From assembly GCA_051294905.1 (NCBI GenBank), contig CM119373.1, positions 3,660,001-3,724,000 on the forward strand: DNA of 64,000 bases. Direction: 5' to 3'. The notes under the pieces are model-generated. The model made no database searches, was not told the origin of the DNA, and saw nothing but the letters and a program-made list of their open reading frames with translations. The position numbers were made by a program, and so were the translations under genes. Below, piece after piece: positions 1,843 through 46,327 of this stretch. The DNA comes from Botryllus schlosseri. Taxonomy: Eukaryota. Numbering within the stretch: position 1 is the first letter of the stretch; every line of letters begins with the position of its first letter.

Positions 1843-3697
1843 ATGCATCAGATTGGAAAATATAACGTCGTCATTCTGCTGTGCATCCTTATTCAAACAG
1901 GTAAGTTTTATTCTGCAAGCATATTATGAATTGGAATATTGGCTGGTAGTGATGAATGAGTGATGAAACAACATAATTCATGGGATACGCATCAATCAAG
2001 CGTTCAGAACAATGAACACCTGTCGACATCTAGAATTAACTTGCAGTATCATTATGAGATATGATGTTTCAACAAGCAGGATGTTCAATGTATCCAGAAC
2101 ATTATCTTTGTTATGAATTAGGTCTTGCTATCCTCAAATTCCCAAGCTTTATGCCGACCAGTGTCACATATTTGCACATTCAAACTATACAATAATATTA
2201 GAAAATACCCAATCAAATGTATATAATCGGGTGGCTATTTTGCCATAAAACACTGTGTTTGATAATGACGATTTTGAAATGGTCGAAATCAGGTCGAAAT
2301 CATTTATAACAGTGAATGAGTCTACACTATTTTTACTGCACGATATTGTAATCCTCGCTGCAATAAAAATATATTCTTGGACACATGTTTCAGAAATCTG
2401 CTCAATGCGAAGGCACCCATACATAAATCCTATTGAGTTGTACTCAACAGAAGAATGTTACAAATTTTGCAGCACCTAGCCTCCAGCGCCAAGCCTCTAA
2501 AGCAGGGGTCACCAACACGCGGCCCGCGAGGTCCTATTGTGCGGCCCGCGACTTGGTTTAAGATTTCGGAAGAAAGCTAAGAAAACCATTTTGAAATGAT
2601 GAAATTGACTACCGTTCAACATATTGTTGTTTTTGTTGTTTCCAAATAAGCTATTCTCCGTTGCCCAACATCACTATCCGTCACAATAGCTAAAATGGCT
2701 GTGACGATGGCAACAGCATTCCATCGAGGGAGAATCAGCTAATATGAATGAGCAATTGAGCATATTGCCTTGACATGCAACGGCCCAAACACTGACAAGA
2801 CCGCGACGCTTAGAAAACGGCTCAGGGCTGTGGTTCTTGAGCTAGGGACGCGTCCTCCTTGTGGGAGCGTGAAAGCCTCTGACGGAGCCAAGGAGCTGCG
2901 TCCAGCTGAAATTTTTTTCGCGCTTGGCGCGATTTACCACATATTTGTAGTTGTTGCTCTGTGTATAGTATGGAATTCATATTATAGAACTCTCGTCAAC
3001 AGTCATACCCTTCCGTGCCGTCAAGCTATTCGTTGGGATTGCTAGCATTCTGGTTGCATTTTGTGATATGACAATAAGGGGGGCGCGAATTTTTTCAGTA
3101 TCACAAATGGGGCTGTCTAAAAAAGTTTGAGAACCACTGGCGTAGCGCTTCCCCACAATTTCAAGCTTTACGTGGAAATGGTCTTTCAGCAAGTAACGTA
3201 TCTTGCTGACCCCAATATCGATTCCTTAGTTGCTGAAAAGCGTTTCCAGGTATCCTGCACAGCTCAGAGTTCAAAATAAAATAAAATCGATGATAATGAT
3301 TTTTTGTTATATTTGTATTCCTTCAATAAAATATTACTTCTTTAGGGTCACTATACAGTTGTTAGGTAGCACAAAGTTGTACTGACGTAGAGTTTTAGAA
3401 CGTGGTTGCCTATTTATATCGATATAGAGTTCATGCGGCCCGCGGCCGCCACGAGATTTGGAAAGTGGCCCGCGACCCGTTTTGAGTTGGCGACCCCTGC
3501 TCTAAAGACAACATGTACGAATGTCGTAGAATCGGGAACTCGAGACTCCAAGACACTAAATGTCACAAAAAAGACAGATACAAGTCGCACATTTTCACTC
3601 AGCTTCTTCAATTTAACTCAACTGTCAAGAGATTTACTTGTCTTCGATACGGCACAGACGAATTGTCAAGGCGGCGAAGTCAGATTTCCATTAGGAA
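1843..3697 (+). pseudogene. Receptor array copy 1 (subfamily A): signal exon plus CUB-like exon 2 interrupted by a hAT element; downstream exons absent
   Basis: Exon 1 1843-1900 encodes MHQIGKYNVVILLCILIQT with a gtaagt donor. Exon 2 is split into 2480-2502 and 3508-3697 (ASSAKPLK/TTCTNVVESGTRDSKTLNVTKKTDTSRTFSLSFFNLTQLSRDLLVFDTAQTNCQGGEVRFPLG). The second conserved Cys is Arg. No exon-3 homologue was seen before the next promoter at ~4.85 kb. Confidence 0.8.
2503..3499. mobile_element. hAT (Charlie-like) non-autonomous element inserted in exon 2 of copy 1
   Basis: TIRs caggggtcaccaac / gttggcgacccctg; perfect 8-bp TSD ctctaaag at 2495-2502 and 3500-3507. Confidence 0.9.
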
Positions 3698-5068
3698 GTA
3701 AGTATATTAGGCCCTCATTGAAAGATAATTGTGGATAGAAAACTTTGTGGAGTACTGATAAAAAGCATTGTCTTCTCTTGAAGACATTTGATCTCTGATA
3801 TTCATATACGACGTAGATGTCGGATATAAATATGAAAGCGTAAATTACGAATGACTGTCATTCGTTCCGCGCAATATGAAGATGCAATCCCACCCATTTT
3901 ACAGTAATGCAATGGGGCTAAACCGGTGCTCCAACCATTCAGCCACGAAAACTGTCAAACCTTATAGTGATATAAGTAGGCCAAATGATTGGTTTTTTGT
4001 GTTTAGGGTGACCTTTGTAGATAAGTTCACTTCATTGTTGTAATAAATAACTTACTCTTACAATTTGGTGTCCATGGTACTTTATTTGGCTCAAGGTACA
4101 CCTTTACGACACAGAGACTGAGTCAAAACATCATGGGCCATATGTGTTCAATTGAATGGGGAGGAACACAGGAACTGGCGATGCATTGAAATAAATTCAC
4201 CACCTATACTGCAAATGGAAATTAGAAACGCAGTGCTTCATTATAGAACACAATTATATAACCTCCATGGAAATGTATCCCACATTAACACTAATACACC
4301 AATGCACTAAGGTAGAGTTGATCAGTTCATATGATGTTAGGATGAGTCTTAACAGTGACACTATCAATGGCAGCAAAACGTTATCGCAAACAGGGCCGCG
4401 CCACTTGCGACCACGTCAAATTACAAAAAACATCGATGCCATATTAGAGAGATTGATTTTGAAACGAGGCTGCAGATTCTCTGTCTCTATTGCCAGTGTC
4501 TATTGGAGATTCAGACCAACAGCAAACATTTTAAGTGCCTTAAATAGCTGGTTTGCGATACAGCACTTGAAGATTGCTTTCATTGCAACATCCATTGCAT
4601 GCAGCAAGACATTTATTTAAACTTACACTCTTTTCGGATACCCTTTTTCAAGAGTTATCGGCACACCAAAGGGATTTGAATAGATTCAAAATGTAAACAA
4701 ACAGGGAAAAGTGTAACGTAACAACAGAGACCAAGATGTTCAATGCACTCAGTTTCAACTGAGCGATTACCTACATTTACTTTCGATTATTACTCATCAG
4801 CACATTAGAAGATGGCTTGAAAGAGCAGCCCGCCTACGAGCAACGCCCCCTGCCGAGTGGTTCTCTTGCAGGAGCCAGGACGATTAGGTCAACACAGGAA
4901 GCTGCAGCACATCATCATTATCATAAAGTTGATCAGGAAGTGAAAATATGGAACATTAAATAGTTCTACAGTAAATGATTCTACAGCAAACATTACGAAA
5001 CCAAAGCTCAGAAGATATCAGTCGCTTTGTTAGGTGAAGTCAAAAGAAGAGATCGTGGAACCATCACC

Positions 5069-8000
5069 ATGCATCAGATTACAAAATACAAATTCGTCTT
5101 GATGTTGTGGATCCCTATTCAAACAGGCGAGTGTTTTACTAATACAATATGAATATTAATATTGGCTGGAATGAAAAGACAACGAAATTAATGGGAACGG
5201 TTGGTGTTACTAAATCATTAGGAACTTTGAACATCTCGCGGGATCTTAACAATATCGCCCAACATCACAGTATGAGATGAGATGTTTCGCCAAGAAGGAG
5301 GTTCTATATATTCAGAAGATGATTTTGCCTCACATATCCGAATTTTGGTGCATCCTGTATTCACTACCAAGATTCCGACAATAACATGTCAGAATGTTAT
5401 AGAATCGGAAACAAAGGCCTTCAAGACTAGACAAGTCACAAGATGGGTAGCAGTGGTGGCTTTGATCTCAGCTCTGTGAACTTGGCTAGACCTCCAACAG
5501 ATTAAATAGTATTCTAGGCAGAATCGCGGTGAACAAGTTTGCTTTTGTTTCTGCAATAAAGTTTGCGAACCCCTGATCTACACCAGAGTTGGACCAATTG
5601 TAATTTGTAATTGAGCTGAATGTAATTAATTACATTTTTCAATGTAATTGTAATGTAATTGTAATTGAACCATTTTTATTTTGTGTAATTGTAATTGTAA
5701 TTGTAATTTGACAAAAATTTTGCTCAATTACAATTTCAATTACATTAAATTGCTATTGAGACCTGACAAGCACAACATAAAATAATTGACTTATAATGCA
5801 TTCTCTTTAAATGTCGACAAGGAAATTGGTGGATCCATTCGCGGAAGCCCTTGACTGCGCCCTTGCGGGCGAAGTTTTTTTATTTTTACCGCTATGCTGA
5901 CTCACGATTGAATACGCCGAGAAGCGAACTGCTGAGCCGGCTAAAAGCAGCAGAATTGATAGTCCCATAGCTGGCGATCCAAGCGTAGAAATTTGATATG
6001 TATGGTCCTAATCGAAAGCTAGTGTCGCACTGATTCCGCAATAAAAGTATATTTCCAGGCAATGGTACCATCCCAAAATAGTCGTGAAAGTCTGGGAATC
6101 GGCATTGTTCTGAACAATCGCTGGGCGTAATTGATCATTGTTGTGGTCATGCTGCTGCGGCGCTCTCACTTTTCAGAACAGTCGGCCTTAAACGGCTATT
6201 TTGGAGCAGTTACATTGCCCTGACGAGATTTTAATTTGTAATTTCGGAATTAGTACATCAATAGCTTACGATAAAGAACAGATGCATCAAATTTGGACGG
6301 TTGGATCGCCAGCTCTAGGACTACAAAGTTTGCTGCTTTTAGCCGGCTCTGCAGTACGTTTGTCGGTGCATTCATCCGTGACTCACATCTTGCGAATCTA
6401 TCCGTGGGTTGGCAATCTACAATACGATTTCAGATCACGATGCTGCATCGTTACTTCGTCTGGCTAACTAACCATACCACTGGATATTATATAACGTCTT
6501 GTCTGACAAAGCACGGTTTTGTTTTTACTCCTCATCCTAATTCCTACGTCCCTTGATAAAAATAATATTATTTCTTTAATTATATACTATATACGCAATT
6601 CCAACACGTGCATATATTATAATACTTTTTTCAACGACATACTGCATACTGGTATAGTTCGAAAACGTTTTTTCTTTTTATCAATAAACGGGTATTTGCG
6701 TATCATGAATGAAACATGAATACTTGAATTGTTGTTTATTACGACGCTACGGTTGTCAAGGAGCACGGTTGAATTTATGATTATTCAATTACATGTTCAA
6801 CAGCAGCAATTGTAATTGTAATGTAATTGAAGCATGCAAGGAGTAATTGTAATTGTAATTGTAATTTGATATTTTTAGCATGGAGTAATTGTAATTGTAA
6901 TGTAATTAAAACATGCATGAAAGTAATTGTAATTGTAATTGTAATTGAACTGAAATAATGTAATTGATCCAACTCTGATCTACACCATGTATTGGTTAAT
7001 ATGGTGAATCCCAAATTAATGTAGTCATGTTGATATTTCGAAGATACAAGATACATGTCTGATCTGAAGTCGGATAAGGGTGCCTTAGGAAATAAACTAG
7101 AAATGCTGACTGTTGATGAATGATAAAATTGTTTACAGTATCAATCACAGACACAACACTAATCATAAGACTCTAGAAATGTTACTGATACAGTTGGATA
7201 TGAATCGATAAGTAGATATTAATGCTGCTCATAGTAACCAGAACTCGAAGTTTGTCTATTCATCATTATGTGAAATATGATACGGAAATGAACTTTTTCA
7301 AATGATATCGCTCAGGACTCACTGCGTCAACTTCGAAGTTCCTAACTACAACATGTAAAGTGCAACAAGAGGGAGGGATGGACTTCCGGACCATAAACGT
7401 CACGAAAAAGACTGGAGGAAATTGCAAATTCGACCTAGAAAGTCTTAACCTGGTCGACCTATCCAGAGATGTTATTCTATTCGATACAGCACGGCTGAAT
7501 TGTAAAGGCGGAGGAACTGTCAAGTTTCCTTACACCTCTCCGAAAAAAAGTTAGTACTCTTCCCTATTGTTCGGAATTACGCGTACGCCGGAAATTCCAG
7601 ATGTCAATAACTGCAACGTCATCACATCAAGGTCAACTCTCTTTAACCTATCCCATGCTTAAATAAAAGATAAGAACTGAACAATAAAGATTCGTTCAAA
7701 AATTTTTTTTTAGATTCCAAAGATTCAATAATTATATTGTTAGGTTGCCTAAAAACATGCTGCACACCATATTTGGCTCGATTTCAACCAGTAAAAGCAG
7801 ACGCAGAGCCAATTGAAAGTTTTGAATCTATTGTTAAAAAATACAAATTTTAAAATGTTACTGTCAACCTCAAAAGTGTTAAGTTGCCTAAAAGAACGAC
7901 GCATAACAATTTTTGCTCACTTCCACCCGGTAGAAGTGAAGTTACTGCAGTTGAAAGTTTTAAATTTGCAAAAATTCCATTGACAGTGGGAAAACCCAGA

Positions 8001-10546
8001 ATAATTATTGGAAAACTCAAGTAACTCCGCTTCTACGGGTCGGATTTGCGTCAAATTTGCTCTTCATCGTTTTCGTAGAAAAACTCAACAATTCCACGAG
8101 GTTAACAGTAAATTTTTTTAAATATAGAGTATTTTTATTGTTATAATTAATAATAAATATCAATTGGCTCTGCGTGGGCTTCTACTGGTATGAATTGAAC
8201 TAAATTTGGTGTGCAGAGTTATTTTAGGCAATGTAACAATTTATTCTGCCAATCCCCGGTAACCGAAAAAAAAAAGTTATTTCTAATGACCATACTAGAC
8301 AAGGTAGTCAAGCCTCAATCACGACGTCATTCTCAATGGGTAATCTGCTTTATAGTTACTTTATGACATAATGGACCCAGTTTACAAACCCCTGATTTAG
8401 ACCATTGCTTTTCAACATTTTCGGTTCAAATAACCAACTCTCAAAGTTATTGTGATAAAGTCAAACACCGTGTTCACATGACGGGTAAACTGAGGGAAAA
8501 AGTGGCAGGAAAAATCTTTATGCATATCATGATGTCAATTAATCCGAGAGCTGCCAGTAACAATTCAACTATAGCGCTTGGTAATATATCTTGTCATAAA
8601 ACAGCATTCAAACAAGACCAAATAGAGGCTATTTGATGACCGTCCTGATGTTGTACATTATCAACAAATATATATCAGTTGAAACCTACATATTGCTGCA
8701 GTATTTACGGCCACATAGCACCAACAGGCAGAGTCCTTCTTCAAAGTGAACAGACGATTCGAAAATATGAAAAGATTTCCATAAAAATCAGTTAGTACCA
8801 CAACCGTGTCATGACGGTCCGCATTCAATTGCATACAAAGGATAACACTGGCTCATACATATGTAGGATGGATCGGGGCATATATTGTAATTACATTACC
8901 AAAGTGTCTTTAATGTTTAAGATTATGAAACGAGGAATTATTGCAACAACATTGTGGGAGAATGTATGGTGTACAGAAGATTCCTCAAGACCTATCCCAG
9001 GGAAGATGTATTGGGAGTGGTTCGCGGCCAGTTTCCAAATTGTACCAGCTACGTCATCAGGCCGAAATATAAACGGGACATAATCGTAACAAGATCAACT
9101 ACAGCCTTAACCCTAAGATACAAGCTTTTCAGTATTCCAACAGCAACAACTGCATCTTCTCGAGTTTTCGCATTGGCTGATAACATAGACCGTTCCTTGA
9201 CAACAGGTAAGGATGCTATAGAATTGGTCATTTAGAATTAAGACAGGTACGTTAACATTTCAGCATCTCTTATTCCGAATCAGGAATTACTAACGTAATT
9301 TAGTGAATTGTCGATACAAATTTGCCATAAAAATATGGGAGTAGTACTGTTCAGTCTTCATAGAGGATAAGCGATTCACAAAATATCTTCGTTTTAGTTT
9401 CACAAAGCTTACCACAAACGGATCTCGAAACAGTGACAAACATAGGACAAAGAGCAAAGGGAGTAGACACAACAGCAATACCAGATGTGGAAAAAGACAC
9501 CATCTCTTCTACTTTGACAAGTAATAATCTACAACCTACGTATAACACATCAAAAATAAAACAGGCCAAATAATCAGCATCCGCGACAGTAGCAGTAGAC
9601 TTTAGATTATCAAGTTTTTCATGTACATAACTGTATTTTGAATATTTCTGATTGTGAAACTTTCATTGGAGCTTGGCTAAAATTCGTAACGTATCAGGTG
9701 AACACAAAAAGTAGATGTATGTGCTGTGCAACCGGACACATACTGTTCCAATGAATGGTTTATCTTTGTCACAGCTCCCGCCGACGTATCACAAACGAAA
9801 AATGGACCGGTCACAGACGGAAAGCCCACAGAACAGGGAGAAGGCACAAGAGCAGTGCCGGATGAGAAGACAGACGTCACTAAAGCCACACAGTCGGACG
9901 TATCAAGTTTGTATTGAACTTCTTCTTGTGATAAGAGTGAATTTGACTGTTTACCATAGTAACTGATTTAATACAGTGGCTCTATTACTCTGTGAAATTT
10001 CAGTTTTGACTTTTGTAAGGCTATAAGTGACATATAATAATATGTGCGCTTTCCATTCTAATATATTAACTTTTGTAAATGGGAAAATAAGGGGAGAAAA
10101 GTGTCATATCGTTAATACGGTGGCATAATATTTCGGAAAACCAATATTGGTCGCGACATAAATCTGTGATGTTGGGGACAGCCAGAGTAAATTTATAGCT
10201 AAATCTATTCCAAAACTCTGTATAATCCAGGATATTACTTTAGATCTCGAGTCGACCTCGAGCCAACAACCTGCTGCAACTGAAAGTTTGATGTCGAAAT
10301 TAACTGGCGGCCAGATCGCAGCTATTGCCGTACCTCCGGCATTGGGAAGTCTTGCGATTCTGTAAGTAGTCCAAAATTCAAACGATATCACCTTGAAGAG
10401 ATATGAGTAAATTCTATTTTCATAGAGCAAGTTTGATACTGAGCAGACGAAGAAACGGGATAATTCATCGTCACGCAAGGATAATGTCTCTCGATAGGAA
10501 GGAAGAAACCAAAGTACAGCCCGGCCAACAAATTACCTACATGTAG
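5069..10546 (+). CDS. Receptor array copy 2 (subfamily A), ~356 aa type I membrane protein with a CUB-like domain
   Basis: Exons 5069-5126 (GC donor gcgagt), 7316-7549, 8922-9206, 9398-9520, 9775-9906, 10244-10361, 10426-10546 join in frame. Signal peptide MHQITKYKFVLMLWIPIQT; 6 Cys; two stalk exons; TM GQIAAIAVPPALGSLAILASLIL; tail ends QQITYM*. The exon 4 donor is the least certain boundary. Confidence 0.8.
5358..5514 (+). pseudogene. Decayed duplicate of exon 2 within intron 1 of copy 2
   Basis: TTKIPTITCQNVIESETKAFKTRQVT...(frameshift)GFDLSSVNLARPPTD* aligns with copy 4 exon 2 (TAKMKTTCKGAVETGTQDFKTINVT...GFSLSSLNLARLSKD). The acceptor tag is replaced by ctg, and the 3' end is cut by transposon sequence. 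Confidence 0.7.
5584..6977. mobile_element. hAT non-autonomous element with (aattgt)n subterminal arrays
   Basis: TIRs cagagttgga / tccaactctg; perfect 8-bp TSD atctacac at 5576-5583 and 6978-6985. Confidence 0.88.
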
Positions 10547-12338
10547 CTGAAAGTTGTGAACTGGGTTGGATAGTGTGAGCAGCTTTACTCATCCTGATGA
10601 TACTGTAATTATGATGCTGAATGATGACATGGTACTTGGCGATATCAGAATCAACAGAAAAAACCATTTGGCGTTGAAAACTCTATAAAATTTTAGACGG
10701 GTAAAATAAGTTGTTAGCATTATTGTATTTGAACAAATGACTGGTGGTAGTTAATGGATATTTCTACTACAGTCATTACAGCATAATTTATTTAACTCAA
10801 ACAATTGCAGCATGTCACTTGCCAAGAATTGACAGCACAATAATACTGTATTTCTACAAAGACAAGCCAGCAGCTTGGTTCAAATAGCTTTCCGATTTGA
10901 TCTGACAATCTATGCATGGCCTAAAAAATGTGATAGCACCTGATCAAACTATGCCGACCGTCAGGTACTGCGAGCCTAGTTAGATTATGTACAAATTTTC
11001 TCCGTTTTTGTCAAGAATTTTTGGGAGAAAATTGTATTGTTGCTTTTGTTGCTTGTCATCAAGCCCGGGTGTTACAAATCTGTTGTCAGACATGCTAAGT
11101 CAATCATCTCTTGTTTTTAAGCAACCCTGATATCTCTATCATTGTCAACATATATTTAGTACTTACACACTCAAGTGAATCATTGCTTATAAAAACAGGA
11201 GCTTGAACCCCTTCAGTATTTGGTGAGACATGTACAAGACTATTTGATCGTTTACGTTGATATACATTGGCACATCTTATTGGCCTTATCTATTCATAGA
11301 CAATTATGACCAATAGAACAGGTCAGGAACAGGTCATTTCAAGTAACAGTTGTTCATAAGTGTATGGCAGTTGCCCTTATTATATTTTGCTTTTGGAGCT
11401 TGCCAATTGCGTGGGAATTCTCTCCTGTTTGCGATCTATGAATGTTTGTGTATCAATAAAAGCTATCGACAGAAGCAAACCGCGTTGCTTAACGACATGA
11501 ATGAAAAATATATCGCTGGCTGCAACTGATATGTGCCTAACATTGTGGATAGTTTTACTCACTGCCAGGTCGACTACTGACAGTGTCCTATTGAAAAATC
11601 CACAAAATCAGTATTTGATTGTAGATCAGGCATTTACTGTAGACAGCAGAAATATAATTGCATCCAGACAGGCCGAGCAGGAAATAGTAATGTTAAAAGG
11701 AATAAAGAAGCAGATATTACACCTCTATGTGTTAAGTTCTCTGATGATTCCCCCGTTGACTGATTAGACCAATTAAAGTGAAATGTCTCTGCTCTTATTA
11801 TAATTCTAATCTATGAAATACTTCTATGCTACCGTATAATTTCAATTCAAATCTAATTTCTGCTTTTCCTGACAATGTTACATGGGAACTGTATAGTGCG
11901 AAACGAGCATGATGCACAGACATTTTCTATTTTCATGCATACGAGGATGAGTTCTGGTTTGATACGAACTGAACTTCATTCAATATCGAGGTTTTCGCGA
12001 ATTCAGAAATTCTAATTTCAATCTAATTCGGAAAAAAATGAGTAGCTAAAATTCCAATTATAATCTAATTTGGAAACGATGTGCAGTTATAATTTTAATT
12101 CCTGTATGTATAAAAATGTATAGCTATAATGCTAAACTAATTTGGAAAACCAGAAAAACTGCTAGTTGTCCTAATCTGCCGCCAGCCATCTATTTAAGAA
12201 TCAGCGTAATTAGTACTTGATTTCAAAGAAGAATCATGTATGTGCCATACAAAGCAGGAAAAGTAAGAGTTGCCGACCAGCACCGATTGGCCGGGTTTCT
12301 TCAATTTATAAGTTGGGACAATGGTGACAAGATAAGAT

Positions 12339-13262
12339 GATTACCAGTGAACCCAGCCGTCGGTAAACCCAGCCCTCGATAAACCCAGCCCTCGGTGAAC
12401 TCGGCCCTCGGGAACTTTTGTAATTAAGTGTATTAACAAGTATTATTATGAATTATTAAACTAATAATGTTATTATCAACTGATTTGTCGATCTTGTAAG
12501 GAGGTCAGGGCATGTGTAGATCACGCAGTCATTGAAATGCGATGCGTGCAGCATGTGGTGCCACATTGATTGTGGGCTTACCAGTGAACTCAGACCTCGG
12601 TGAACTCAACCCTAATATCCCCCCTCCCCCAACCCTAATATCCCACCTCCGGCAACCCTAATATCCCACCTCCACCAACCCTAATATCCCCCCTCCCCCA
12701 ACCCTAATATCCCACCTCCGGCAACCCTAATATCCCACCTCCACCAACCCTAATATCCCCCCTCCCCCAACCCTAATATCCCACCTCCGGCAACCCTAAT
12801 ATCCCACCTCCACCAACCCTAATATCCCACCTCCGGCAACCCTAATATCCCACCTCCACCAACCCTAATATCCCACCTCCACCAACCCTAACATCCTACC
12901 TCCGCCAACCCTAATATCCCACCTGCGGCAACCCTAATATCCCCCCTCCCCCAACCCTAATATCCCACTTCCGGCAACCCGAATATCCCACCTCCGGCAA
13001 CCCTAATATATCCCAGTAAGTATGTAAGTAAGTGAGCGTCGCGTTATCTCCCCCGCACGCTTGTATAGTATGTGAGCGTCGCGTTATCTCCCCCGCACGC
13101 TTTGTGAAGTATGTGAGCGTCGCGTTATCTCCCCCGCACGCTTGTGAATACAAAATTTCCCGAGGGCCGAGTTCACCGAGGGCCGGGTTCACCGAGGGCT
13201 GGGTTTACCGAGGGCTGGGTTTGTAAGGCTGGGTTTACCGAGGGATGGGTTCACCGGCAACC
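12339..13262. mobile_element. Foldback-like element with tandem-subrepeat TIRs and an internal minisatellite
   Basis: Left arm (gtgaacccagccctcg)n and right arm (cgagggctgggtttac)n are inverted. Direct repeat gataagat(g) lies at 12331 and 13263. Confidence 0.8.
12608..13012. repeat. ~22-23 bp C-rich minisatellite aaccctaatatcccacctcc(ggc/acc) containing CCCTAA
   Basis: Tandem units are directly visible, followed by three ~40-bp units gtgagcgtcgcgttatctcccccgcacgctt at 13032-13143. Confidence 0.92.
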
Positions 13263-13644
13263 GATAAGATGTTAATCTTTCACAATCACAATGCAGCTTT
13301 CCGGTACCAGAAAACTAGACGCACGGACCCATTACACAATTATTGAACACTAGCTACTAATGACCAGGATAGGAATGTATGCCGCATTCAAGATAAAACA
13401 CCCTTCAACGTAAGTTGAGAAACTCACAACGAATATCAAGAGGTGCTCTATAGCGGGGAGCAAGGATGACTACACCAAGGCAGGAAGGTAGAACAAATCA
13501 TCATTATCATTAAAATCCATCTGAAAGTTTATCAGGAAGTGAAGAGTTGAAACATTAAATTGTTGATCGTGCCGCTGTAGAAATTTTGAAACCATTAGTT
13601 GCTCATTGAGTGCAGTGAAGAGAAGAGATCGGGGAACAGCGACC

Positions 13645-19925: not shown

Positions 19926-20399
19926 TTGAAAGTTGTGCACTCGACAGCACGGTGCGGACAATTTAGATTATGTTTTGACTTCACCTGAACTATGATGCTG
20001 AAAATATGGAAAGTCGACGTTGATACTTTGATCCAACTGACTAAATCATTCTTCAATCGCTTCGGCACAACATTCGATGAGGATCATCAAAGAATATGCT
20101 ATTTAGACGCTATAACACATTACTGTATTTTTATTGTACTAAGACACCGTAATTTTCCAAGTTTAGAACGCCCCCATGTATAATACGCACCCTTAAAATG
20201 GCATGCAAATTCTGGTAAAAAGCCTGTACCCATGCACAGTACGCACCTTGCATTCGCAGTACATGAATAGTTATGTTTTAGTATTCGATGTAAGGAAAGG
20301 AAAGGATTTCGTTTATTTTTGTCCTTGATGTTTTTTGAGGCATATACACCGACTCATGATACACATACACACGATCTGCGCATATGCATATCATGAGTG

Positions 20400-20593: not shown

Positions 20594-20685
20594 GTGTATG
20601 TCATTCTGTTTTGCGATGTCACTGTCGAACAATCATGACATAATTATCGCTAATCATTATACAATTACCGGCATTGTCTCTAAAC

Positions 20686-33956: not shown

Positions 33957-36900
33957 ATGCATCATATTTCAAAATATGGATATGTCATACTTCTTCTGAT
34001 CTGCCTTCAAACCGGTAATAATTGCATGGTTTGCGCATCTATGATAGGACGCTGTGATATCACATCAAGTGCAATAAACGATGCAAGCAATAGCTAACTT
34101 TCGGTAATCGTTATGATAGCTAGAACATTCGTACCAGTACAGAGTGAGCGAAAAATACAGTTTCTGTGAAGATGTCAGATCACAGCAATCGCTCACATGA
34201 TGCTGGCAGATTTAAGTGTAGATCTGAAAATTATAGCCTCCCAAAGGCTAGTTAGTAGATTTGAGATTTTCAGAGAGGAATTTGGCCTTTGGATTGTAAA
34301 GGAAGGTAGGGCTGCATCTGCAATGAATTCTAGTTATTAGTATGACATATTACATGCTGATTATTTGATCACATGAGATAAAAAACGGAAACCAGTGGGG
34401 TAAGGGGAAATGACAGAATGCACTACTGTTCGTGTGATACACATATGACATGTACCAGTACATAAATGTCATTGTCTTGTTCCAACGGAATAAATAAAAA
34501 CCAAGGGTTGAACGGAGTGAGATGCAAGGCTTCAAAATACATTTTTCACAGGTCTCTAGAATGTCTGTGACCTGCCCACACCTGTGACCGAGTCACAAGG
34601 TTCTGAGTCACTAGTCCGTCCAACGTTTATTAGTTTCGACTCGAGTCAAGGCGAGTCATTTTCCATCGACTATAGTTTCAAGCCCAAGTCATGGAGCGGA
34701 GGGTCGAGTCCGAGTTATTGTATTGACACTCCGAGTTGACTAGACTTGACTCTAGTCAATTTTTAAAATGTGTTAAATGACTCGACTCGTGTCAATTTTT
34801 GTATTGATTCGACTTGAAATCGAGTCATTGTGCATGAATCAAACCAAGTCATCAACAACACTATGACTCGGACTCGACCCTCCACTCACTGACTTGGACT
34901 CGGACTTGACTCGGTGGTGAATAGAAAATGACTCGACTTGACTCGAGTCAAAACTATAAAAGTGGGATTGACTTGCGACTCGGAACCAGGTGACTGGGTT
35001 ACAACCCTGCGAGTCAGTCACGACTCGAGTCACTGCAATCCTGAACCTGCCTTATCAAGACTCAGACACAAATCACCGCGTCTAATATACATTTAGGCCT
35101 ATAAAAGTAATATTTTTTCAGCAACGGGTATCTTACAAAGGACTGGCGACACTTGCTCGGACAGCACGATCACAGAATTTAACAAATTGAGTGGAGAATT
35201 ATATGTTAAAGATGAAACCCCAAACGATTGTGATTGGATTGTCAACTGGCCAGCCGATACGCCAGTCGATGCGATAATCATGCGTATCAATCATGTGTGG
35301 ATCGACTGTGGCACAGGATACCTAAGATTTAAAGACAGTCAAGGTATTGATAGGTGCTGACAATGCTACACTAGTGCAATGCTTGGTGTAACTGAGAAAT
35401 AGTAACAATAAGTCATGTGCCTCCTGTTTCAATACAACAATAATTTCAAATACAAATTACAGAAGCCATGTAGCGTTGCATAAAAATTGCTCAAGTAGAA
35501 TTGTAGGTAATTCAAAAGCATACATACTTGACATAACCTACTGGAATACTCCAAAAAAGTAGGAGTACTTCGTTACTGACCACTAGATCTAAGAAAAATA
35601 CTAGAGTACTTGAGTGATTCAATTCCGAATCGAACACCAGCTTCAAGTCAATTCGACTATTGAGTGCCAATCAATATGATTAGTTTGGAAAGTTCAATTA
35701 TGCACCTTTCATGAGACCGCAAAGAATCCCAGGTGCCAGACAAGATCAGGTATTGTTTAGTGCCGCAAATGTGAATGTTTGTTTTCAAAGTTCGGTTGAT
35801 ATGAATCAGTGGTTCTCAACCTTCTCTCAGTGCAGTGGTGATCAACACACAGTATTGTCACTAAGTGCAATGAAATTGGTATGGTCGAAAAAATAACCTC
35901 AAGTGTGATGTATAACTGACATCATATTCTTTGTGGTCGCATAAAGGTGCCAATTTGAACTTTCCAGCCCAGCCCCAATACTGACCACCTCCGCACACAT
36001 ACTAACGCGTAATCTTCTCCAATTAGGCGACGGTTGCGGCATATGCGAGACCGCGGAATTAGAGGACTCAACGGAATACTGTCAAATATATGCCAACGGA
36101 GAAGTATGCACTGAGGAAGAAATATGGGAGGCCACACACACATACTTCCCGGATTGCACAAAAACCGTTATTCACCGCAGCCTAAACACTATGTCAGTGC
36201 ATTTGGTAACGGATGACAGGCGTTTTCGGGAATTCACTCTGGAATATCAGCTGCACGCTTGCAAAGGACCGGGTGACCGGCTGACAGCATTGCTCGGTTC
36301 GGGTCCAGCGGTATCCAATAAGATATCTGCATTGGATCGGCTGGAGGATAGCTGTCCTGTCGTGGTAAGCTCACAACACAGCATGGTCGAGACATCACCC
36401 TCCCCTGACGCGAGTACAGTTAGTGTGACAACGTATGCTGATGAGCTCATAACAAGTCCTCAAACATATACCGAAGTAGCCAGGTCAAGTGCACATATGT
36501 ATGCCAAAGAAGATATCACAACAGTGCTGACATATACCGATGAAGCAAAGGCAAGTATACATATGCATACCAATGAAGATACAGCAAGCGTGCATATGCC
36601 TACCAATGAAAGCAGGGCGAATACACAAAAAACACCATCAAATGACGTCACGGGCCCAACATCGAACCAGGGTGATGCAGCTGATTCCAAGAATACTAAC
36701 ACAGGTAAGAACCAGGTAATGCCATGCATGGCCAGGGCCATCATGACAGCGCAGTAAGCACTTTGCTCTACTCTATCATGATTATGATTACAGGAAAATC
36801 GCAAAGTGACTGATGATCATTGCTTGACTGCATGTATAACAACAACATCAACTTTGCCATAGTAGTTAAAAGCATACAATGATATACTCAATAATAATTT

Positions 36901-38832
36901 ATAATTGCAATTCTAAACTAATTTAGTAAAGCTGTGTAGCTAATCATAATCTAATTTGTCAAAACTGCTTATTTATAATTCGAATTCGAATCTAAGTTGG
37001 TAAAAACTGTGTAGCTATAATTCTAATCTAATTTGGAAAGACTATACAAGTCTAACCATAATCTAATTTGTCAAAATTGTTTATTTATAATTTGAATTCT
37101 AAGCTAATTTGGTAAAAACCGCGTAGCAATAATTCTAATATGATTTGGAAAAACTATATGTGTATAATTCCAATTCTAATCTAATTTGGAAAAACTGTAT
37201 ATTTATAATTCCATTTATAATCTAATTTGGTGAAAATCTGTGCAGCTATAGTTCTAATTCTACTTTCAAAAGGGTGAAAATTATCAAGTTGTCCCAAGTC
37301 TGCACATTTCAAAATGATGCGTCCAGCGGACATGTATGTTCTAAAATCAAAACACTAATCTACCACCGTTACATGGTTAACGCAGGTCAGCGACGAAGAG
37401 ACCAAGCGGAACGAGCCTTGAGAGAGTGGAAGTTATGTTGGATCCCTGTGATAATCCTCGCAATACTGCTGACTCTCAGCGTTTTGATGCATATTGTTAT
37501 GCTCTGCAAAAGGTAGGAGGCGATCCTTCCATGCCAGTGGTTCTCAACTTGTTTAGCCATACAATGGGAGTGAAAATTTTCAAGACTTGACCAGTTAATC
37601 TTAATTCAGAGACCTCTCCTGGTCGGTGATCGCATCAGTGAAAATCTAGCATCAGTTTGTGGATGGTCTTACGCAATTACAACAATTAAAATCGTGATAT
37701 ATTTAGTGACTGCCGTAGTTGGACCTTTTTTCAGCGCATAATAAACTCATTGCAAGTTCAAGAAAATCATTTTTCTTAGACGGCTTCGCGTCCCCCTTCA
37801 GACGCTTTCACGCCCCCCAGTTTGAGAACCACTGCTCTATGCAGACTTGGACAACTAAATAATTCTGGTTGTCTAATTATAGTAATTATAGGGCAATACC
37901 TGTAGTTTAAATCTAGTCTAATTTGTGAAATGCTTCTATGCTGTAATTTTCATCTAATTTCCGTTTTTTCTGAAAAAGCACAAAACACAGCGCAAAACCA
38001 ACCAAGCTAGGTGTACAGTAGAGGTGTTCAAAAATGACTTTTTTTCTCAAATCGTACTGGCTATATGATAAACTTGTTAGGTTACCTAATTTAGGCCTAC
38101 ACACCAAATTTGGTTCAATTCCAACCAGTGGAAGCGGAGTTATTGCCATCGAAAAATTTGGATTTGTATAATATAGTATTTACGGTGAGGCACCACTATC
38201 ATAAATAATTAAAGAATTTGCCACCGTAAATCCTATTTTATTGATAATCCAAATTTTCCAAAGGCAATAACTCCGCTTCCACTGGTTGGAATTGAGCCAA
38301 ATTTGGTGAACATCATTTCTATAGACAAACTAACACGTTCATGGGGTGAACAGAAGAAATTCAATTATTTTTATTATATATTTTCATATAATAGATAGAA
38401 ACTTTCTTCTCCTGTAGCAACGCGGCTGCAGGCAGGAATTGAACCAAATTTGGTGCGTAGGCTTAAATTAAGTAACCTAACAATTTTATCAAGTTGCCGG
38501 TACGATTTGAAAAAAAAGGCATTTTTGAACACCCCTAGTGTACAGGTATTTGCCATCCTCGTGGTTATGAGAGTAAATGCTGATTAGACATGAACTGAAC
38601 TGAATTTTTACTGTCTTTCTTTTTAATTCAACTCGGTTTCCAAGTTCTGGAAATTTGGAAAGACAAGTGTCTCTGTAATTCTGACTTTAATCTAATTTTG
38701 GAAAGCTGAAATTTTTCCAGAGTTGTCCGTCTCCATTTCCATCATCATACGTAACGAATAACACAGAACCCGTTTTTCAGGAGAAAACACATGAAAAAGT
38801 ATCACGTCGGGAAATCATCAAATTTAGCATGA
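33957..38832 (+). CDS. Receptor array copy 5 (subfamily B), ~378 aa type I membrane protein with CUB-like domain and 11-aa repeat stalk
   Basis: Exons 33957-34014, 35122-35343, 36027-36704, 37386-37512, 38781-38832. Signal MHHISKYGYVILLLICLQT; CUB-like TPNDCDWIVNWPADTPVDAIIMRINHVWIDCGTGYLRFKD...MSVHLVTDDRRFREFTLEY; TM WIPVIILAILLTLSVLMHIVML; tail RRKHMKKYHVGKSSNLA*. Confidence 0.85.
36428..36625 (+). repeat. Coding 33-bp (11-aa) repeat, 6 units, stalk of copy 5
   Basis: TTYADELITSP/QTYTEVARSSA/HMYAKEDITTV/LTYTDEAKASI/HMHTNEDTASV/HMPTNESRANT. Confidence 0.8.
38019..38537. mobile_element. hAT MITE with an internal palindrome (gagccaaatttggtg family)
   Basis: TIRs tagaggtgttcaaaaatg / catttttgaacacccta; perfect TSD gtgtacag. 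Relatives lie near 7690-8280, 23770-24340 and 59465-60030. Confidence 0.85.
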
Positions 38833-39951
38833 TGCCGTCATCGGAGGTGACTCCCAAAGGAGTTTCAAAGCAACACAACTCGAGGAACAATTTGAACGCT
38901 AATCTTTAAGAGCATACCCAGTGTGACCCGGCCATTGGGCGTTATCCTAACTTTGTATTTCGCATATTGAATCAATCTGGGATATTTTGTGGCATATTAC
39001 GTGCATGTAGGATGGATCATAACCTACATTTGGTGTAACTTTCACAGAATATAATTTGATTTGTAAATATATCTACTGACAGGACAATGCGTCGAGGTTA
39101 AGATACCTGCGATGCAGGAAATGACACCTCACTTTTTATGTGTATTCACTTACAATAAACTCAATCGACAATGTAGTAACTTCAACGAAACTGGATATAG
39201 CATGTATATTTATGTTCTTCCAGGCCAGAAGATTAGGACTTTGAAACTTTATTGTACCGTGCAAACACAATATAATGCAATACAGAATGAAGCATTTCCT
39301 CAAGTGATTTGGAATCTGTGCAAGACATAGAGCAGCTGCTTAATTCTACCACGCTCACATTAGTATAGATGCCCGGTATGAATGGATTTGATATCTTCTA
39401 ATCTAAGTCCCATATTCAATTTCTTTATACAAAAGTCCATGTTTATATTGTGTGTTAACTAAAGTATGCTATGTCACCAGCTTCAAAATGAAAAGTGATG
39501 ATATTCTAATGTTAAAGTTGCAGTGTGATTTCGCAAAAAACGTGAAACAGATAGAAGGCTTCATTGCTCATATCTGATTCAGTTTCTACACCTACAGTGT
39601 ACAACCTATGAATGTAGCCCACGCATTAACGTTTGAAAGTACGTTTCATGTTCTTAATGCCATCAACTTATCGCGGGCCTGTCAGAATTGCATCTTGATG
39701 CGGATTTTACCACGAGATGTCGAATGCCCAGGTCTGCTCTATGCCGTGACATTATGCCTTGAGACTCAGGATCAATTTCAAGTTGTATGCCATTTTAGTC
39801 TTAGAAAGTACGGGATCAAGGTTTACTAGTGGTAAATGTTATTTAAAAATAGAGAAGGCTTATGATCTGTGGAAGCTAACGAGTTCATTTTTCCGTTTTC
39901 ATAAATGCTCGTCAGATTCATTATCACAGTGTTAATATACAGTCTGTAAGA

Positions 39952-42900
39952 ATACATCAGATTACAAAATACGTCTCGCTATTGCTGATCTGCGTTCTAA
40001 CAGGTAATATTTGCATAGGAGGTCCTGCATCTAAAGAAGGACAATGATATTTCACATCCAGTTGCTAGTTTCGAAAAGTGGGTAGTTCTAGTTTTAGTTC
40101 CAGTTGCGTAAGTTGGCATGAATCGAGATACCAGTGTTCTGTTGAATGATGTTTGTGCAGCCATTGCTAGCTCAGAGTCATCACTACTAATAGCGGCGTA
40201 GCTAGCGGATTGGATTTTGGGGTCGAAATCTCTCCCATTTCAAACTCGACACTCCATCCTTTTGAAATGTCGATTCCATGTATGATATTTCAGATGACAT
40301 AAAAATTAATGTATTGCGTTCGACAGTGGTCAGGAACCTATGACTCGCGAGCCATATATGGCTTTTTTAGGCATAGGATATGGGCCTTCGCGAAATTTTA
40401 ATTTTTGTGCTCAATTTATCAACATTGCAGCAACTTGTTATCGAATCTTCAGCACGAGCAGTATAATTATTCTTGTGGCAATATAAAAATGTCTTCTATA
40501 GGTTAATACAGTGACGTATTCAGGGTGCGGACCCCTTTTCAAAATCCTTAAATTTAAGTTGCGGTCGTGCCGGTGACCAATATCACTCGCAAATTGGATG
40601 TACCCAGTACGAAATCTTGAATTGCACGATGCATTAATTCATCAAAGAGACAAGGAGACATGGCGGCGCCTGTATCACAATGCAGTTTTCAAATATACAT
40701 TGTCTTCCTGATCTCCGGCGAGAAATAAACTGCCATTTACAATTACAAATTCAAATCACAAACAACTCCACAGCTATCCACGTTCTTGATTGATAACGTG
40801 GCTTTGTAGTCGCTGTTAAAAGGTAGGCGTGTTGCGCAAATGTCACCGCCGAATACTTTGAGAATTGAGAAGTGTTTCTAACTTTATTTTCTAACAATAA
40901 ATAGGCAAATTGTGTGATTTTGGAAGTAAAAATGTTCAAAATCTAGTAGACAGGTGAGGCACTTGCCTCCCCTGACCGCACGTCACGGACGCATCGCAAA
41001 TGGGTATGTATACTAATGTTAGTGACCGTGTTTGGCTCCACCTACGTATGCCATCATGGGTCTTCGCATTCAAGAATAGCATCAAGACAAACTTACGATC
41101 TCGTATAGCTGACTTAATTTCTCTTAATTTCTGTCCTTCCTGTTCTCTTCTGGTGCTCTCACATCTTGGTCTTCTGTACGGATATATTCACACGTATGTT
41201 CATATCTTCTTTCTCGCTTCATTATGTTCAATGACTCCGTGTTGATGAAATGATACATGATTCTGGCTGCGGTGCTCTGCGCCTTGTATCTTGTCTGTTC
41301 GACTGTCGTTGCTACCCTTTGAACCATTAACCAGACTTTACCACTCTCTCTCCAGTCGCCTCCCCCTCAGAACCCGTCAACCCATTTTCATATTCTGATG
41401 GGTGCAGCGTGGAGCATTGTTTGGAGGACTATCAGCGGAAGGCTCCCTATTATTTGCCGGATTGGATATATCAACCGCAGGCGATGTCTGTTAATAAATA
41501 ATATACGACAGTTCATGGTACGTTCTGCCGGGTCGCGTTGCGCCACTGGGAATGCACGGTATATACTTATCGAAAATGTACGGCTTAAGGCTTTCGCATT
41601 GTACAGTTGTGCTTGAAGTTTACGAGGTATTGATGCTACTTTTGCATTATTTAGATCACCCTCAATTTCAATCGCCACTCACCCGCAAATTATTCGATTG
41701 CGATAGCTTTAGCGGTTTTCTCGGTCTAAATTGGGTTGCTGTGTTTCTATAATTCTGATAAGCTTGCCTTGCGTCGTAGCGTGCTGGCACCATTCAGCAA
41801 CATTCTTGATTTGATCGCTGCTCATTACGAAACTCATCAATCAATCATGGTCACACAAATCATTTTCCACAATTGTGTTGGTCAGCGCAATTTTGACCGC
41901 ACAACGTCTGGTATTTTAGTGAAAATTGTGGTGACACTTATTAATGATAAATAATCGTAATCATTTCATTCCCATCATCAATGACCTACATTTCATAAAT
42001 TTCAATGCACCTGCAATTCATGTCCAATAGATATTTCGCTAACAAGTGAATTTTCTGGGGGTAAGTTGAGACATTTGAGCAATGATTTTTGAGGGCCAAG
42101 AAATCCGGGAGTGTGCATTTCAATATAACTTAAAATCTAGTCATGAGCAGTACAGATCACAGGGTTTCCATCGGTATCAAAATTAATGCTCGAAAGACAT
42201 TACTCTCTGAGTGGCATCGAAATATTAAAAAAGCGTCTCATCTTTGCCCGGCATTTACGCCTAAAAAGGATTTCTTGCAGCAACGGGTGTCCTCCAACGG
42301 AATGGCAACACTTGTTCGCAGAGCACAATCACAGAACATGACGAAACGAGCGGTGAATTATATGTTCGAGATGAAACGCCAAACGACTGTGACTGGAGCG
42401 TCAACTGGCCAGAAGATACGCCACTCGACGCGATAGTCATGCGTGTCACTAATGTGTGGATCGACTGTAATACAGGATACCTAGGATTCCAAGACAGTGA
42501 AGGTAATAATAGTTGTTGACAACATACGCTATGTTGGAACTTCTCCAGCCCAACGTTTTGACCAACTCGGAAATGGGTAACGCCGTGAATTTCTCCTATA
42601 CTTTTCTTCATTTTTGGTTGGAACTGAATGTACTTACAAAGCAGCTGTTTGCTGGCAACATTGAAGTTTGGTGCATACTGCTTGAGTGTCAGTGACACAC
42701 TTGTTCCATACCGACATCGACCCTCTTAGAACGGCACACAATTCTGAGTATAACAAACATCTCTCGATCCGCCCAAACGGCGACAGCCACTATGATATAA
42801 GAGTCAATGTCCACCATGGTGACCTAACGCTAGAATTGTGTCAAATTTTTTAATTTTTTTGCAATGCCAAAAATTAAACGACCCACTTAGGAGACTGAGA

Positions 42901-45900
42901 ATAGGTGAAATCTTCGAACACCTATTCTATTACAATGATAGAGGTATTATTTAACATGTTTCTTGCGACAATTCCACACACTGTAGCGATGCTAAGCTAT
43001 CGCGAAACTACTTTCCACTTTCAAAAACCATAAGTGTGAAAAGCGGGGAGTTTTGTCGATAAACAGCTGAGGTAGAAGTTTATGCAGTCTGAAAACAAAC
43101 CCACATGAACAAAACCTACTCGAGTTGTTTTGATGGGGTTTTGGAATGAATTGGTCTGCAAAAATCTGTTTTCTCCTGTGATATCAATAACCACTATTCC
43201 AGAATAATTTCAAGAAGAACTGCTACATAGAAATGACTAACTGGACGTTATATTGGTGCCGTGTATGTTGCAATCGTACCCAAAGGTGTCGTCGAAAGCG
43301 TTATGCATTTTTATTATATTCTCCACCACCTATCTTTGTGGAAATTAATGGATTTTAGGCAGTCATTCATGTCGAATCGACGACATGGATTTTCAAGAAA
43401 TGAAGCTAAGGAATTCGCTTCGCTTCCCAATTTATATATAAATAGTATGATATTATTTTCAAGAAAGATCACTTTTTTGCTGTTTATCACTAGCCTACAC
43501 AGTTAATATTTGCACAAGACATACAGAGCTAAATAGAGAATAATACATAGAGCTCAATTTGAACTAAAACCTGTGGGGTCCACGGGGTCCGTGACTGTTC
43601 AAAGGGGGTCCGCAAAGATAAAAAGGTGAAGAACCACGGCTCCAATACAACAACCCAACAACCGAGGTTTCAACGCTTTCAGGGTGAGAGGAAATTATCC
43701 AAAGAATAATTCTCGCTGATAGTACAACTCATAGTAACAAGGGTCATATAATTTCAATATAGTCAATGGTGCCTACTGCTGCACAACAACAGATATTATT
43801 GTGTTCTGTGCAATATTTATCTATATATCAGTTTATTCACTTTTATAATATATGTTTTTTGATTGATTCATTTATTTTTCCTAGTACATAAAATTCTCCT
43901 TCTCTTTTCACACAAAACAATGTGTTACGCATAATCTGTATTCATCAAATTCTCGGTAGATCATAGGCCACTTTGTGACCTAATGACGTTTAAACAATCA
44001 GCCAGACAATACAAATCAATCAGTGTTTTGAACTGCAAATTAACATGTTTGTTTCTCTCATCATTTGACGAAATGAATCCCTCTCTCTACTGACCACCGC
44101 TACATGCAACAAATAACCACACAAACTAACATGGAATCTCCTTCAATCAGGCGACATCTGCGGTATATGCGAGACTGCGGATATCGAGCACTCGACGGAA
44201 TTCTGTCAAATATACGCCGACGGAGAGGTTTGCACTGAGGAAGAAATATGGGAAGCCACATACAAATACTTCCGGGACTGCACAAAAACCGTAATCCACC
44301 GCAGCCTCCAAAATATGTCAGTGCATTTGGTAACGGCGGACAAGCGCTTTCGGGAATTCACTCTGGACTACCAGCTGCACGCTTGCAAAGGACCAGGCGA
44401 CAGGCTGACATCATTGCTCGGTTCGGGTCCGGCGGTATCCAATAAGACATCTGCATTGGATCGCCTGGAGAATAGCTGTCCTGTCGTGGTACAATCACAA
44501 CATGACGTGGTCGAGACATCAACCTCCCCTGATGAGAATACATTTAGGGTGACAACGTATGCTGACGAACTCGTAACAAGTCCACAAACATATACAGATG
44601 AAACTAGGTCAAGTGCATATACGTATACCAAGGAAGATATCACAAGCGTACATACCAATACCAATGAAGATTCAACAACTGCGCATACATATGCCGATGA
44701 AGTTAAGTTAAGTGCACATACATATACTAATGAAGATACAGAAAGTGTGCATACACACACCGAAGAAGTTAAGGCAGGCGTACATATGCCTACCAATGAA
44801 GGCACAGCAAATACACAAAAACCACCATCACGCGACGTCAGTTACCCCTCAACGAACCAGGATGATGTCACAGTTTCCGAGAATATGAACACAGCAACAG
44901 GTAATTAACAATCTTTGCCTAGTAAACATCTGTATGACAGCGCAGCATGTCGCCTACTCTACTCTCCTACATCATGACTATGATTACAGGAAAATCGAAA
45001 AGTGATCACCCATGATTACCCGACTGCATTTATGACTATCGCAACTTTGTCATTGTTGTAGAACAGTCTTTCCCAACCTTTTAACTTCATTCTCCACAGT
45101 CTCTATTACCCACAACCTAAAATCCTTCAATCCAATCCTTCAAAATTCTCCCTCCGATAAAACAGCAAGGACATTCTATTGACGCAAGTTAAGATGCCCC
45201 ATGATTTATTTTGACGACCCATATTAAGAATAACCAATGATTGTGGTAGTTGCTCGTAATTTTTCTGAACACACGCCAGACCGAAGTTGATTTAACTATG
45301 GTCATGTTTTATTTTAAGTTTGGTCTTTATGTTTTATGAAGTTCACTTAAAGTGATATGCAATTTGTTTATTCAAGTTCACCCAATACCACCGTGACGTC
45401 TGGCAGTAGACATTACCAATCGCCTTTTTCTTCAGCATAAAACTGTTTCAACGAAATCTTTACTGAATATGATGCTGCTCGTGCTAAACATGTTTGTGAT
45501 TCCAATATTAGTTATCCTGAATTCAAAATGAGATTTTGTGAACAACACGCCATGAAATTAGTGACGTATACAGTCCAGAGCAGTGAACTTTCAACCAACA
45601 TCGTGGTGTTATGCCTCTGTACATATTGCATAGATTTTGCCTGTTCCCCACCAGAAACCCTTGAATTACCCACCGGTTGCGAACCACTGTTGTAGAAGAA
45701 CTATTATGACATTCTTGTTTTGGTTTTCAAAACGGGTGCAATTTTAATCATTGGCACCTTGCTTGAAGCTATTAACCTTTGAAATTATAGACAATTGGAT
45801 CAAAATATTGTAGAAGACATTGTACTAGTGAAAAGAGTATTATAAACGCAATGATACGCAAAATATTAAGAATAGGTACCATTATCTGGGTGCCACGACT

Positions 45901-46327
45901 CAGCTAAGCACGGATTCACTGGAAATGAAAGAAGTACTTATATTTTGTGAATGATACAAGTTTTTTTCAAACATACTATTAACCTTTAAAACGTTTTCAA
46001 AATGGCGCTTCCTGCTGCCATGTACGTTCCAAAATCCATACGTTAATCGAACAATGCTAGATGGATAATGCAGGTCAGCAAAAAATAGACGAAGAGACAC
46101 AAGCATCTGGACAGTGGCACTCATGTTGGACAGCGACAATAATCCTGGCAATACTACTGACTCTCAGCGTTTTAATGCATATTGTTGCGCTCTACAAAAG
46201 GTATGTGGCGATCCCACCGTCATCAGACCGAACGGATATCATAGATCCTGTTTTTAGGAGAAAGCGCATGAAAAAGAACCATGTCGAAAAAGATTTGGAT
46301 TCAAAAGTTGACGATACCAAAGTGTGA
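39952..46327 (+). CDS. Receptor array copy 6 (subfamily B), ~406 codons, otherwise intact but the start codon reads ATA (possible pseudogene or null allele)
   Basis: Exons 39952-40003 (IHQITKYVSLLLICVLT), 42281-42502, 44151-44900, 46074-46200, 46258-46327 are open and highly similar to copy 5. Tail RRKRMKKNHVEKDLDSKVDDTKV*. No in-frame ATG lies between the upstream stop at 39877 and the ATA. Confidence 0.75.
44552..44815 (+). repeat. Coding 33-bp (11-aa) repeat, 8 units, stalk of copy 6
   Basis: TTYADELVTSP/QTYTDETRSSA/YTYTKEDITSV/HTNTNEDSTTA/HTYADEVKLSA/HTYTNEDTESV/HTHTEEVKAGV/HMPTNEGTANT. Confidence 0.82.
45064..45689. mobile_element. Charlie-like hAT MITE
   Basis: Degenerate TIRs cagtctttcccaacc / ggttgcgaaccactg; perfect TSD ttgtagaa. 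Confidence 0.78.

Follow-up and report, generated by a model that had tools for sequence, protein, structure and literature searches.

Comparison with described receptor systems

No invertebrates are closer relatives of vertebrates than tunicates, yet the receptors that these animals direct to microbes, allogeneic cells and gametes are only partly catalogued. Among them, the Botryllus fester family and the fester co-receptors (FF/FcoR) are clustered type I receptors with birth-and-death turnover and with both short-tailed and tyrosine-tailed kinds, and they are described with Ig and sushi domains, three transmembrane (TM) segments in FF, tails carrying immunoreceptor tyrosine-based inhibitory motifs (ITIM) or hemITAM motifs, paired genes and shown polymorphism (PMC12582321, PMC12065747). 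The locus studied here lies in a window of 64,000 nucleotides of Botryllus schlosseri (assembly GCA_051294905.1, contig CM119373.1, here C3, positions 3,660,001-3,724,000; window positions start at its first letter), for which an original prediction made from the sequence alone had proposed a tandem array of six CUB-like single-pass receptor genes. Our results indicate that this array likely encodes single-pass CUB-type surface receptors of an undescribed family, probably serving recognition. Lineage-specific receptor arrays are common in invertebrates. It is clustered and mixes tail types as FF/FcoR do, but none of the distinguishing features listed above was found in it. Since no Ig or sushi match was obtained in two Pfam scans (sets of 9 and 13 exons or partial proteins), no canonical ITIM was present in 12 tails and the fold evidence points to CUB, the array does not belong to FF/FcoR.

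Vertebrate CUB receptors such as CDCP1, Kremen1, neuropilins and NETO have, like the array members, a signal peptide, a CUB-type module, one TM helix and a short or Tyr-bearing tail; they are conserved, few-copy, multi-domain proteins. Kremen1 and NRP1/2 also appeared among the VIA structural matches of the array head. The array differs from them in its single divergent head (two in one member, u5), its mucin-like stalk and its lineage-restricted organization in 15 units. Spermadhesins are secreted single-CUB proteins of seminal plasma, and the intact array models differ from PSP-I and PSP-II in having a stalk, a TM helix and a tail. The array is also distinct from HrSMLP1, a single 100-kDa gene (PMC6916515), and from Themis and vCRL1 (PMC9265791).

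Organization and location of the array

The array consists of 15 tandem units, counting genes and broken copies, which span 126 kb: g1-g6 in the window and nine more (u0-u8) upstream, found by genome searches and in 120 kb of upstream sequence. It starts at C3:3,580,119, about 80 kb beyond the upstream edge of the window, and ends, as had been proposed, at the TGA at window position 46327. The earlier description was correct as to the existence of the array, but its six genes were only part of 15 units, and the upstream part and the host intron had been overlooked. The window contains six homologous signal-type exons, detected by self-comparison and three-frame reading (1843, 5069, 13645, 22177, 33957 and ~39949). 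They had been described as MH..KY signal exons of about 58 nt; five of the six are indeed 58 nt long with ATG and a phase-1 donor (GC in g2), but that of g6 has ATA. A clean open reading frame (ORF) starting with ATG is limited to g2-g5, four of the six copies in the window.

The statement that five copies continue into in-frame exons for a Cys domain, a stalk, a TM helix and a tail proved right. Genes g2-g6 splice at AG/GT(GC) sites into frames of 317-407 codons with only a terminal stop, the other two frames having 9-26 stops. Their layout is constant (signal exon, two Cys-head exons, stalk exons, TM exon and tail exon), all ectodomain introns are in phase 1 and a phase-2 intron marks the end of the TM segment. 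The stalks measure 103-192 amino acids (aa), with 24-34% S+T and 13-16% D+E, and the part beyond the best 19-aa TM window has 19-34 residues. This agrees with the single-pass receptor-type architecture that had been claimed. Subfamilies A and B are homologous, as judged from HHalign comparison of their profiles (90% for exon 3 and 68% for exon 2), and the exon phases and Cys motif reported as common to both were found again.

All 15 units lie, as a nested cluster, inside one intron of ASCC3, on the opposite strand to this gene. The intron occupies positions 1..49093 of the window (minus strand) and, as a whole, C3:3,575,344-3,709,093 (133,750 nt). Of the two flanking exons, one (49094..49185, minus strand) corresponds to residues 240-268 of chain 8alz_B in the alignment and the other, 134 kb on (at C3:3,575,343), to residues 270-319. 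A codon split in phase 2 joins both exons and their phases match; the intron was called from exon order and phase in genomic DNA. The ASCC3 exon tested is single-copy in the genome. A Brr2/SNRNP200-like helicase match was also seen at C9:223,289-223,474, inside a largely intronless open frame of 1,794 aa; ASCC3 is intron-rich.

Recognition genes nested in introns of other genes have precedents. v-Themis lies antisense in an intron of s-Themis, and the LRRTM surface-recognition genes lie in alpha-catenin introns (PMC9265791 and PMC3933685, respectively). In the Themis case each host carries a single nested gene; the array presented here spans 126 kb with its 15 units, all of them in one intron of a housekeeping helicase. 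The fixed ASCC3 exons on both sides simplify the comparison of copy number and alleles across individuals and species. For LRRTM, too, there is a single nested gene per host.

A second locus of about 9 kb, C3:15,921,700-15,930,340, contains a copy of u6 (v1) and a broken exon 2 of u7 (v2). It is 12 Mb away from the array, close to one ORF of C2H2 zinc-finger type and another that resembles a retroelement. No further locus was found in the genome with six other exons of the family as queries, the counts being lower bounds. Two artefactual origins of the array were considered and rejected: a repeat artefact, because the exons are kept in frame while the introns are full of unrelated repeats, and an assembly duplication, because the closest pairs are only ~75-84% identical across introns.

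Fold of the extracellular head

The head likely has a divergent CUB-like fold with an inserted helix, an assignment that rests on four lines of evidence, each weak when taken alone. First of all, an exon-2 profile searched against PDB gave cubilin as the sole match at E<=10 (E 0.015), and the seven rows obtained with a profile of B exon 2 only included spermadhesin PSP-II (E 0.11) as well as cubilin (E 0.22). CUB proteins made up 15 of the top 50 VIA structural-match rows, the best of them being spermadhesin 1spp, and the top three ESM Atlas clusters were named CUB or carried PF00431 (scores 0.85-0.86). Finally, hhalign against 17 CUBs of the same genome scored 21.3, the maximum in 60 column shuffles being 15.7. 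A mixed exon-2 profile against PDB was discarded, its top row being the unrelated PeiW.

Exon 2 shows the pattern C..CxW..I/V..C..gYL and there is a terminal F-x-L-x-Y strand, as in CUB, and the predicted beta-sandwich overlaps CUB residues 37-113 of 1spp_A. CUB domains have four conserved cysteines that form two disulfides. At the expected positions, the first Cys is present in 15 of the 16 heads and the other three in all of them, together with two further invariant Cys, so that five Cys are invariant and the sixth is missing from one head. The heads, of about 140-150 aa (cores of ~136-159 aa), are longer than CUB, which has ~110 aa and no helical insertion, and compared with the domain represented by PF00431, 1spp and 3kq4 they have one extra conserved Cys pair (more in B). 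An 11-residue helix is predicted at model residues 56-66, in the part of best confidence, together with an inserted strand. The head may be pictured as a jelly-roll core with two CUB-type disulfides and a strand-helix insert pinned by a third. Calcium-binding CUBs (C1r/s, MASP, cubilin) have acidic ligands that include the Asp before the 'YL' strand. The array heads have Gly or a gap there; this Asp is also absent from PSP-II ('CGKEYV') and present in cubilin ('CSTDYL', where the strand is preceded as 'TDYL').

The claim that CUB features were established in these genes was overstated, although a CUB-like fold remains the best guess. In the exons and partial proteins scanned, the array head stays below every Pfam threshold: neither the set of 9 nor that of 13, nor P0002, a spliced relative described below that lacks its first ~45 residues, gave a Pfam CUB match, and none of the 146 PF00431 matches of the genome is on C3. 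Foldseek with either half-domain model gave no match at E<=0.001, the exon-3 profile gave 0 rows against PDB sequences, and exon 3 alone had no usable match in the ESM Atlas. Canonical CUB clusters occur on C6, C10, C11 and C15, some in open frames of 750-3,085 aa, which suggests that CUB genes have expanded elsewhere in the genome too.

The resemblance to spermadhesins raises the question of gamete-surface binding, in which the array proteins would be membrane-anchored counterparts of spermadhesins that bind egg coat or sperm and undergo fast reproductive turnover. Spermadhesins rank first for the B exon-2 profile in sequence and among CUB proteins in structure, PSP-II shares the absent Asp, and expression limited to a stage or tissue could account for the near-absence of the array from three RNA runs. 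The HrProacrosin CUB domain, which binds ascidian vitelline-coat proteins, and the nested Themis genes are precedents (PMC9265791). However, other CUBs match as well as the spermadhesins do, all of them weakly, no positive selection was seen, and the host gene is a housekeeping helicase and not a partner determinant. We consider a gamete role rather unlikely.

Tails and proposed function

Two upstream members stand out by their cytoplasmic tails. The most divergent one, u0 (C3:3,580,119-3,583,666, plus strand, opposite ASCC3), has a short stalk and a 57-aa acidic tail with 4 Tyr and the terminus YYQV, a possible PDZ- or SH2-binding end. The divergent u1 (C3:3,586,347-3,589,450, same strand) has a 157-aa tail with 12 Tyr in contexts such as YLVP, YTAP, YFVP and YEVV; its tail and exons match only themselves genome-wide, as a single copy. 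The remaining scanned tails have 15-34 residues, are basic beside the membrane and contain 0-2 Tyr. No canonical ITIM ([ILVST]xYxx[ILV]) was found in the 12 tails scanned, those of u5 and u8 being outside the scan, in which hemITAM was not a separate pattern.

The reading that we favour, with about an even chance of being right, is that of locally duplicated, ligand-binding heads on glycosylated stalks that recognise the surface of microbes or other cells, u1 and u0 providing signalling. The array would encode type I membrane proteins whose CUB-like head is held off the cell on a probably O-glycosylated stalk and, in the role of an innate recognition receptor, binds molecules on foreign surfaces or on partner cells. 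Heads that differ as much as these (11-86% identical) could have a different ligand in each member. Most members, with short basic tails devoid of signalling motifs, would act as adhesion, tether or decoy receptors, while the tyrosine motifs of u0 and u1 would signal by docking SH2/PTB adaptors; u1 is the best candidate signalling chain. Local duplication inside the intron would supply new copies, and insertions, stops and start loss would eliminate them. Three results weigh against this proposal: Pfam does not recognise a CUB domain in the exons and partial proteins scanned, no positive selection was seen (pairwise whole-domain ratio of nonsynonymous to synonymous substitution, dN/dS, of 0.23-0.79), and raw RNA runs X19, X23 and X17 gave almost no exon depth over window positions 1500-17000.

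Part of this evidence is what would be expected from adhesion or surface-coat glycoproteins of an epithelium or of the tunic interface whose genes multiplied by drift, the intron tolerating them, and which play no part in self/non-self discrimination. Only purifying selection was detected, the stalks are long and S/T-rich, the tails of most members are short and motif-free, and the only Pfam rows of P0002 were sub-threshold stalk-TM matches, e.g. TMEM154 and podoplanin. Heads that are as little as 11-20% identical and keep the Cys frame suggest, however, different partners, and two members retain tyrosine-rich tails; such a coat function is in our judgement fairly improbable. A bolder extension of the recognition proposal, a tunicate receptor complex in which haplotype-variable short-tailed chains would signal through one or two tyrosine-tailed ones of the array and non-self would be recognised by the helix-inserted CUB heads, seems distinctly unlikely. 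If it were true, non-self recognition would be built on CUB, and not on Ig or lectin domains, and housed in one intron of an essential gene.

Divergence and turnover

In a tree of the 16 heads, A and B form separate clades and u0 and u1 are on long unplaced branches. The sister pairs are g2/u8, g3/g4, g5/g6, u3/u4, u5a/u5b and u6/v1, and the broken copies are g1, u8 and v2. Birth-and-death turnover, which had been proposed for the family, is supported by these recent duplicate pairs and pseudogenes, as judged from sequence comparison. The dN/dS of the heads (pairwise, whole domain) was 0.23, 0.27, 0.31, 0.34, 0.56 and 0.79 in six of eight pairs, the other two being distant and saturated. These values denote coding constraint, relaxed in g3/g4.

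Run X1, which we take by guess to be RNA, had a depth of 5-10 over unique sequence of g1 and g2 and of 0-1 over exons 1-3 of g3 (window 13391-16492). This hole is a possible hint of presence/absence variation, although filtered records can also cause holes. Contigs from X1 differ by 1-8% from the window, a figure that has no background control. The X1 pattern, which by itself proves nothing, together with the clustered birth-and-death family and a mixture of short and Tyr-bearing tails that is also known from FF/FcoR (PMC12582321), would fit allorecognition determinants or receptors like fester/FcoR, i.e. haplotype-variable clusters deciding fusion or rejection. Nevertheless, the Ig/sushi domains, the ITIM/hemITAM tails and the gene pairs that the same source describes were not found in the array, and we regard an allorecognition role as very unlikely.

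Expression and splicing

The spliced transcripts that the gene models require were found in part. An X1 contig of depth 12 contains an exon 2-exon 3 joint of 13 letters, 12 of which match g4. The AAG acceptor of g4 is supported by this contig, as it matches the predicted g4 junction and not that of g3. In another X1 contig the match starts exactly at the exon-3 acceptor of g2 (8922). P0002, derived from a Logan contig of 2,077 bases, reads from exon 2 to the tail as one intronless stretch that includes exon 3 and the TM segment, and its joints agree in position with the g5/g6 models. As its head shares 66% identity with u7 and 51-52% with g5/g6, P0002 is by sequence a relative or paralogue and not a window gene. 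An origin of the spliced joint from a processed copy was rejected, since all 8 exon-3 and 10 exon-2 matches in the assembly are split array exons. X1 also contains intronic sequence.

On the other hand, the three raw RNA runs were nearly blank, and no listed exon joint was found over the interval given above in the portions read of X19, X23 and X17 (6, 13 and 3% of each run, respectively). A run search returned 16 runs with window sequence, with shares up to 0.42 and none on record as RNA. We take the expression of some members as real, likely at a low or restricted level. These blank runs, the broken g1, u8 and v2, the absent ATG of g6 and the alternative acceptor required by u4 could also indicate a mostly dead array, whose decaying copies are carried in a large intron. 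However, most units are complete multi-exon frames, sister pairs have a dS of 0.2-0.4 with dN/dS below 1, and spliced forms exist; a dead array is extremely unlikely.

Distribution of the family

A profile search of 1.84 billion protein representatives yielded four relatives, all unnamed singletons from Logan or ENA, in agreement with the earlier statement that this is not a named family and with a narrow distribution. Two of them, P0003 and P0004, share 30-40% identity with heads of the A type, a divergence that probably places the origin of the family before that of this species. The genome also gave two GH6 matches, as expected of a tunicate, GH6 being a hallmark of this group among animals. 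A word-index protein search gave one genomic-exon relative; in the same type of search, whose negatives are weak evidence, B exon-2 and A exon-3 alignments gave no relative among longer proteins. None of 167 pattern matches in JGI metagenome contigs was confirmed. Nothing on the family or on genes in an ASCC3 intron was found in the literature searched, although supplements may carry these genes under locus ids. Domain-based surveys would miss the family, which Pfam does not detect and of which protein databases contain next to nothing. The array supplies about 12 intact candidate receptors, a new CUB variant and one obvious candidate signalling member, u1. Its helix-inserted head, the crowding of 15 units into a single intron and the pair of members with tyrosine-rich tails make it worth following.

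Models of the individual units

Upstream of the window, u0-u3 and u5-u7 have complete frames, u4 is in frame only if an alternative acceptor bypasses the A-run that would shift its frame, and u8, recently duplicated from g2, contains stops. Member u5 (C3:3,624,247-3,631,000, plus strand, opposite ASCC3) has two tandem heads, 86% identical, which arose by an internal two-exon duplication; its tail exon is uncertain, the tail being 58 aa as modelled.

All window units are on the plus strand. The A-type pseudogene g1 (1843..3697) has a signal exon at 1843-1900 and an exon 2 (2480-3697) interrupted by a 997-bp insertion (2503..3499) resembling a miniature inverted-repeat transposable element, with terminal inverted repeats and an 8-bp target-site duplication, from the length of which we take it to be hAT-like. 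Its second Cys is lost, it has neither TM nor tail, and no exon 3 was found in 3698-5068. The A-type g2 (5069..10546, 356 aa) is a spliced open frame of exons 5069-5126 (GC donor), 7316-7549, 8922-9206, 9398-9520, 9775-9906, 10244-10361 and 10426-10546; its intron 1 holds an extra, degenerate and frameshifted copy of exon 2 (5363..5520, plus strand). The GC donor after the signal exon is present both in g2 (window 5127) and in its duplicate u8 (C3:3,650,281). Two further A-type genes follow, g3 (13645..19925, 317 aa; exons 13645-13702, 14231-14443, 16194-16478, 18093-18233, 19608-19746 and 19808-19925) and g4 (22177..31759, 320 aa; exons 22177-22234, 23359-23568, 24622-24900, 28663-28803, 31424-31580 and 31642-31759), the AAG acceptor of g4 exon 24622-24900 being slightly downstream of the acceptor site of g3.

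The B type is represented by g5 (33957..38832, 378 aa; exons 33957-34014, 35122-35343, 36027-36704, 37386-37512 and 38781-38832) and g6 (39949..46327, a frame of 407 codons; exons ~39949-40003, 42281-42502, 44151-44900, 46074-46200 and 46258-46327). The signal exon of g6 is 6 nt shorter than that of g5, and no in-frame ATG was found back to the upstream stop at 39877; g6 has thus either lost its start in this allele, become a pseudogene recently or kept a first exon that was not seen. Coding repeats of 33 nt at 36451-36587 and 44575-44810 lengthen the stalks of g5 and g6 unequally. Finally, a 23-nt tandem repeat with 17 registers, in which CCCTAA-like units are abundant, occupies window positions 12515-13078 and is flanked by inverted repeats at ~12341-12422 and 13149-13260.
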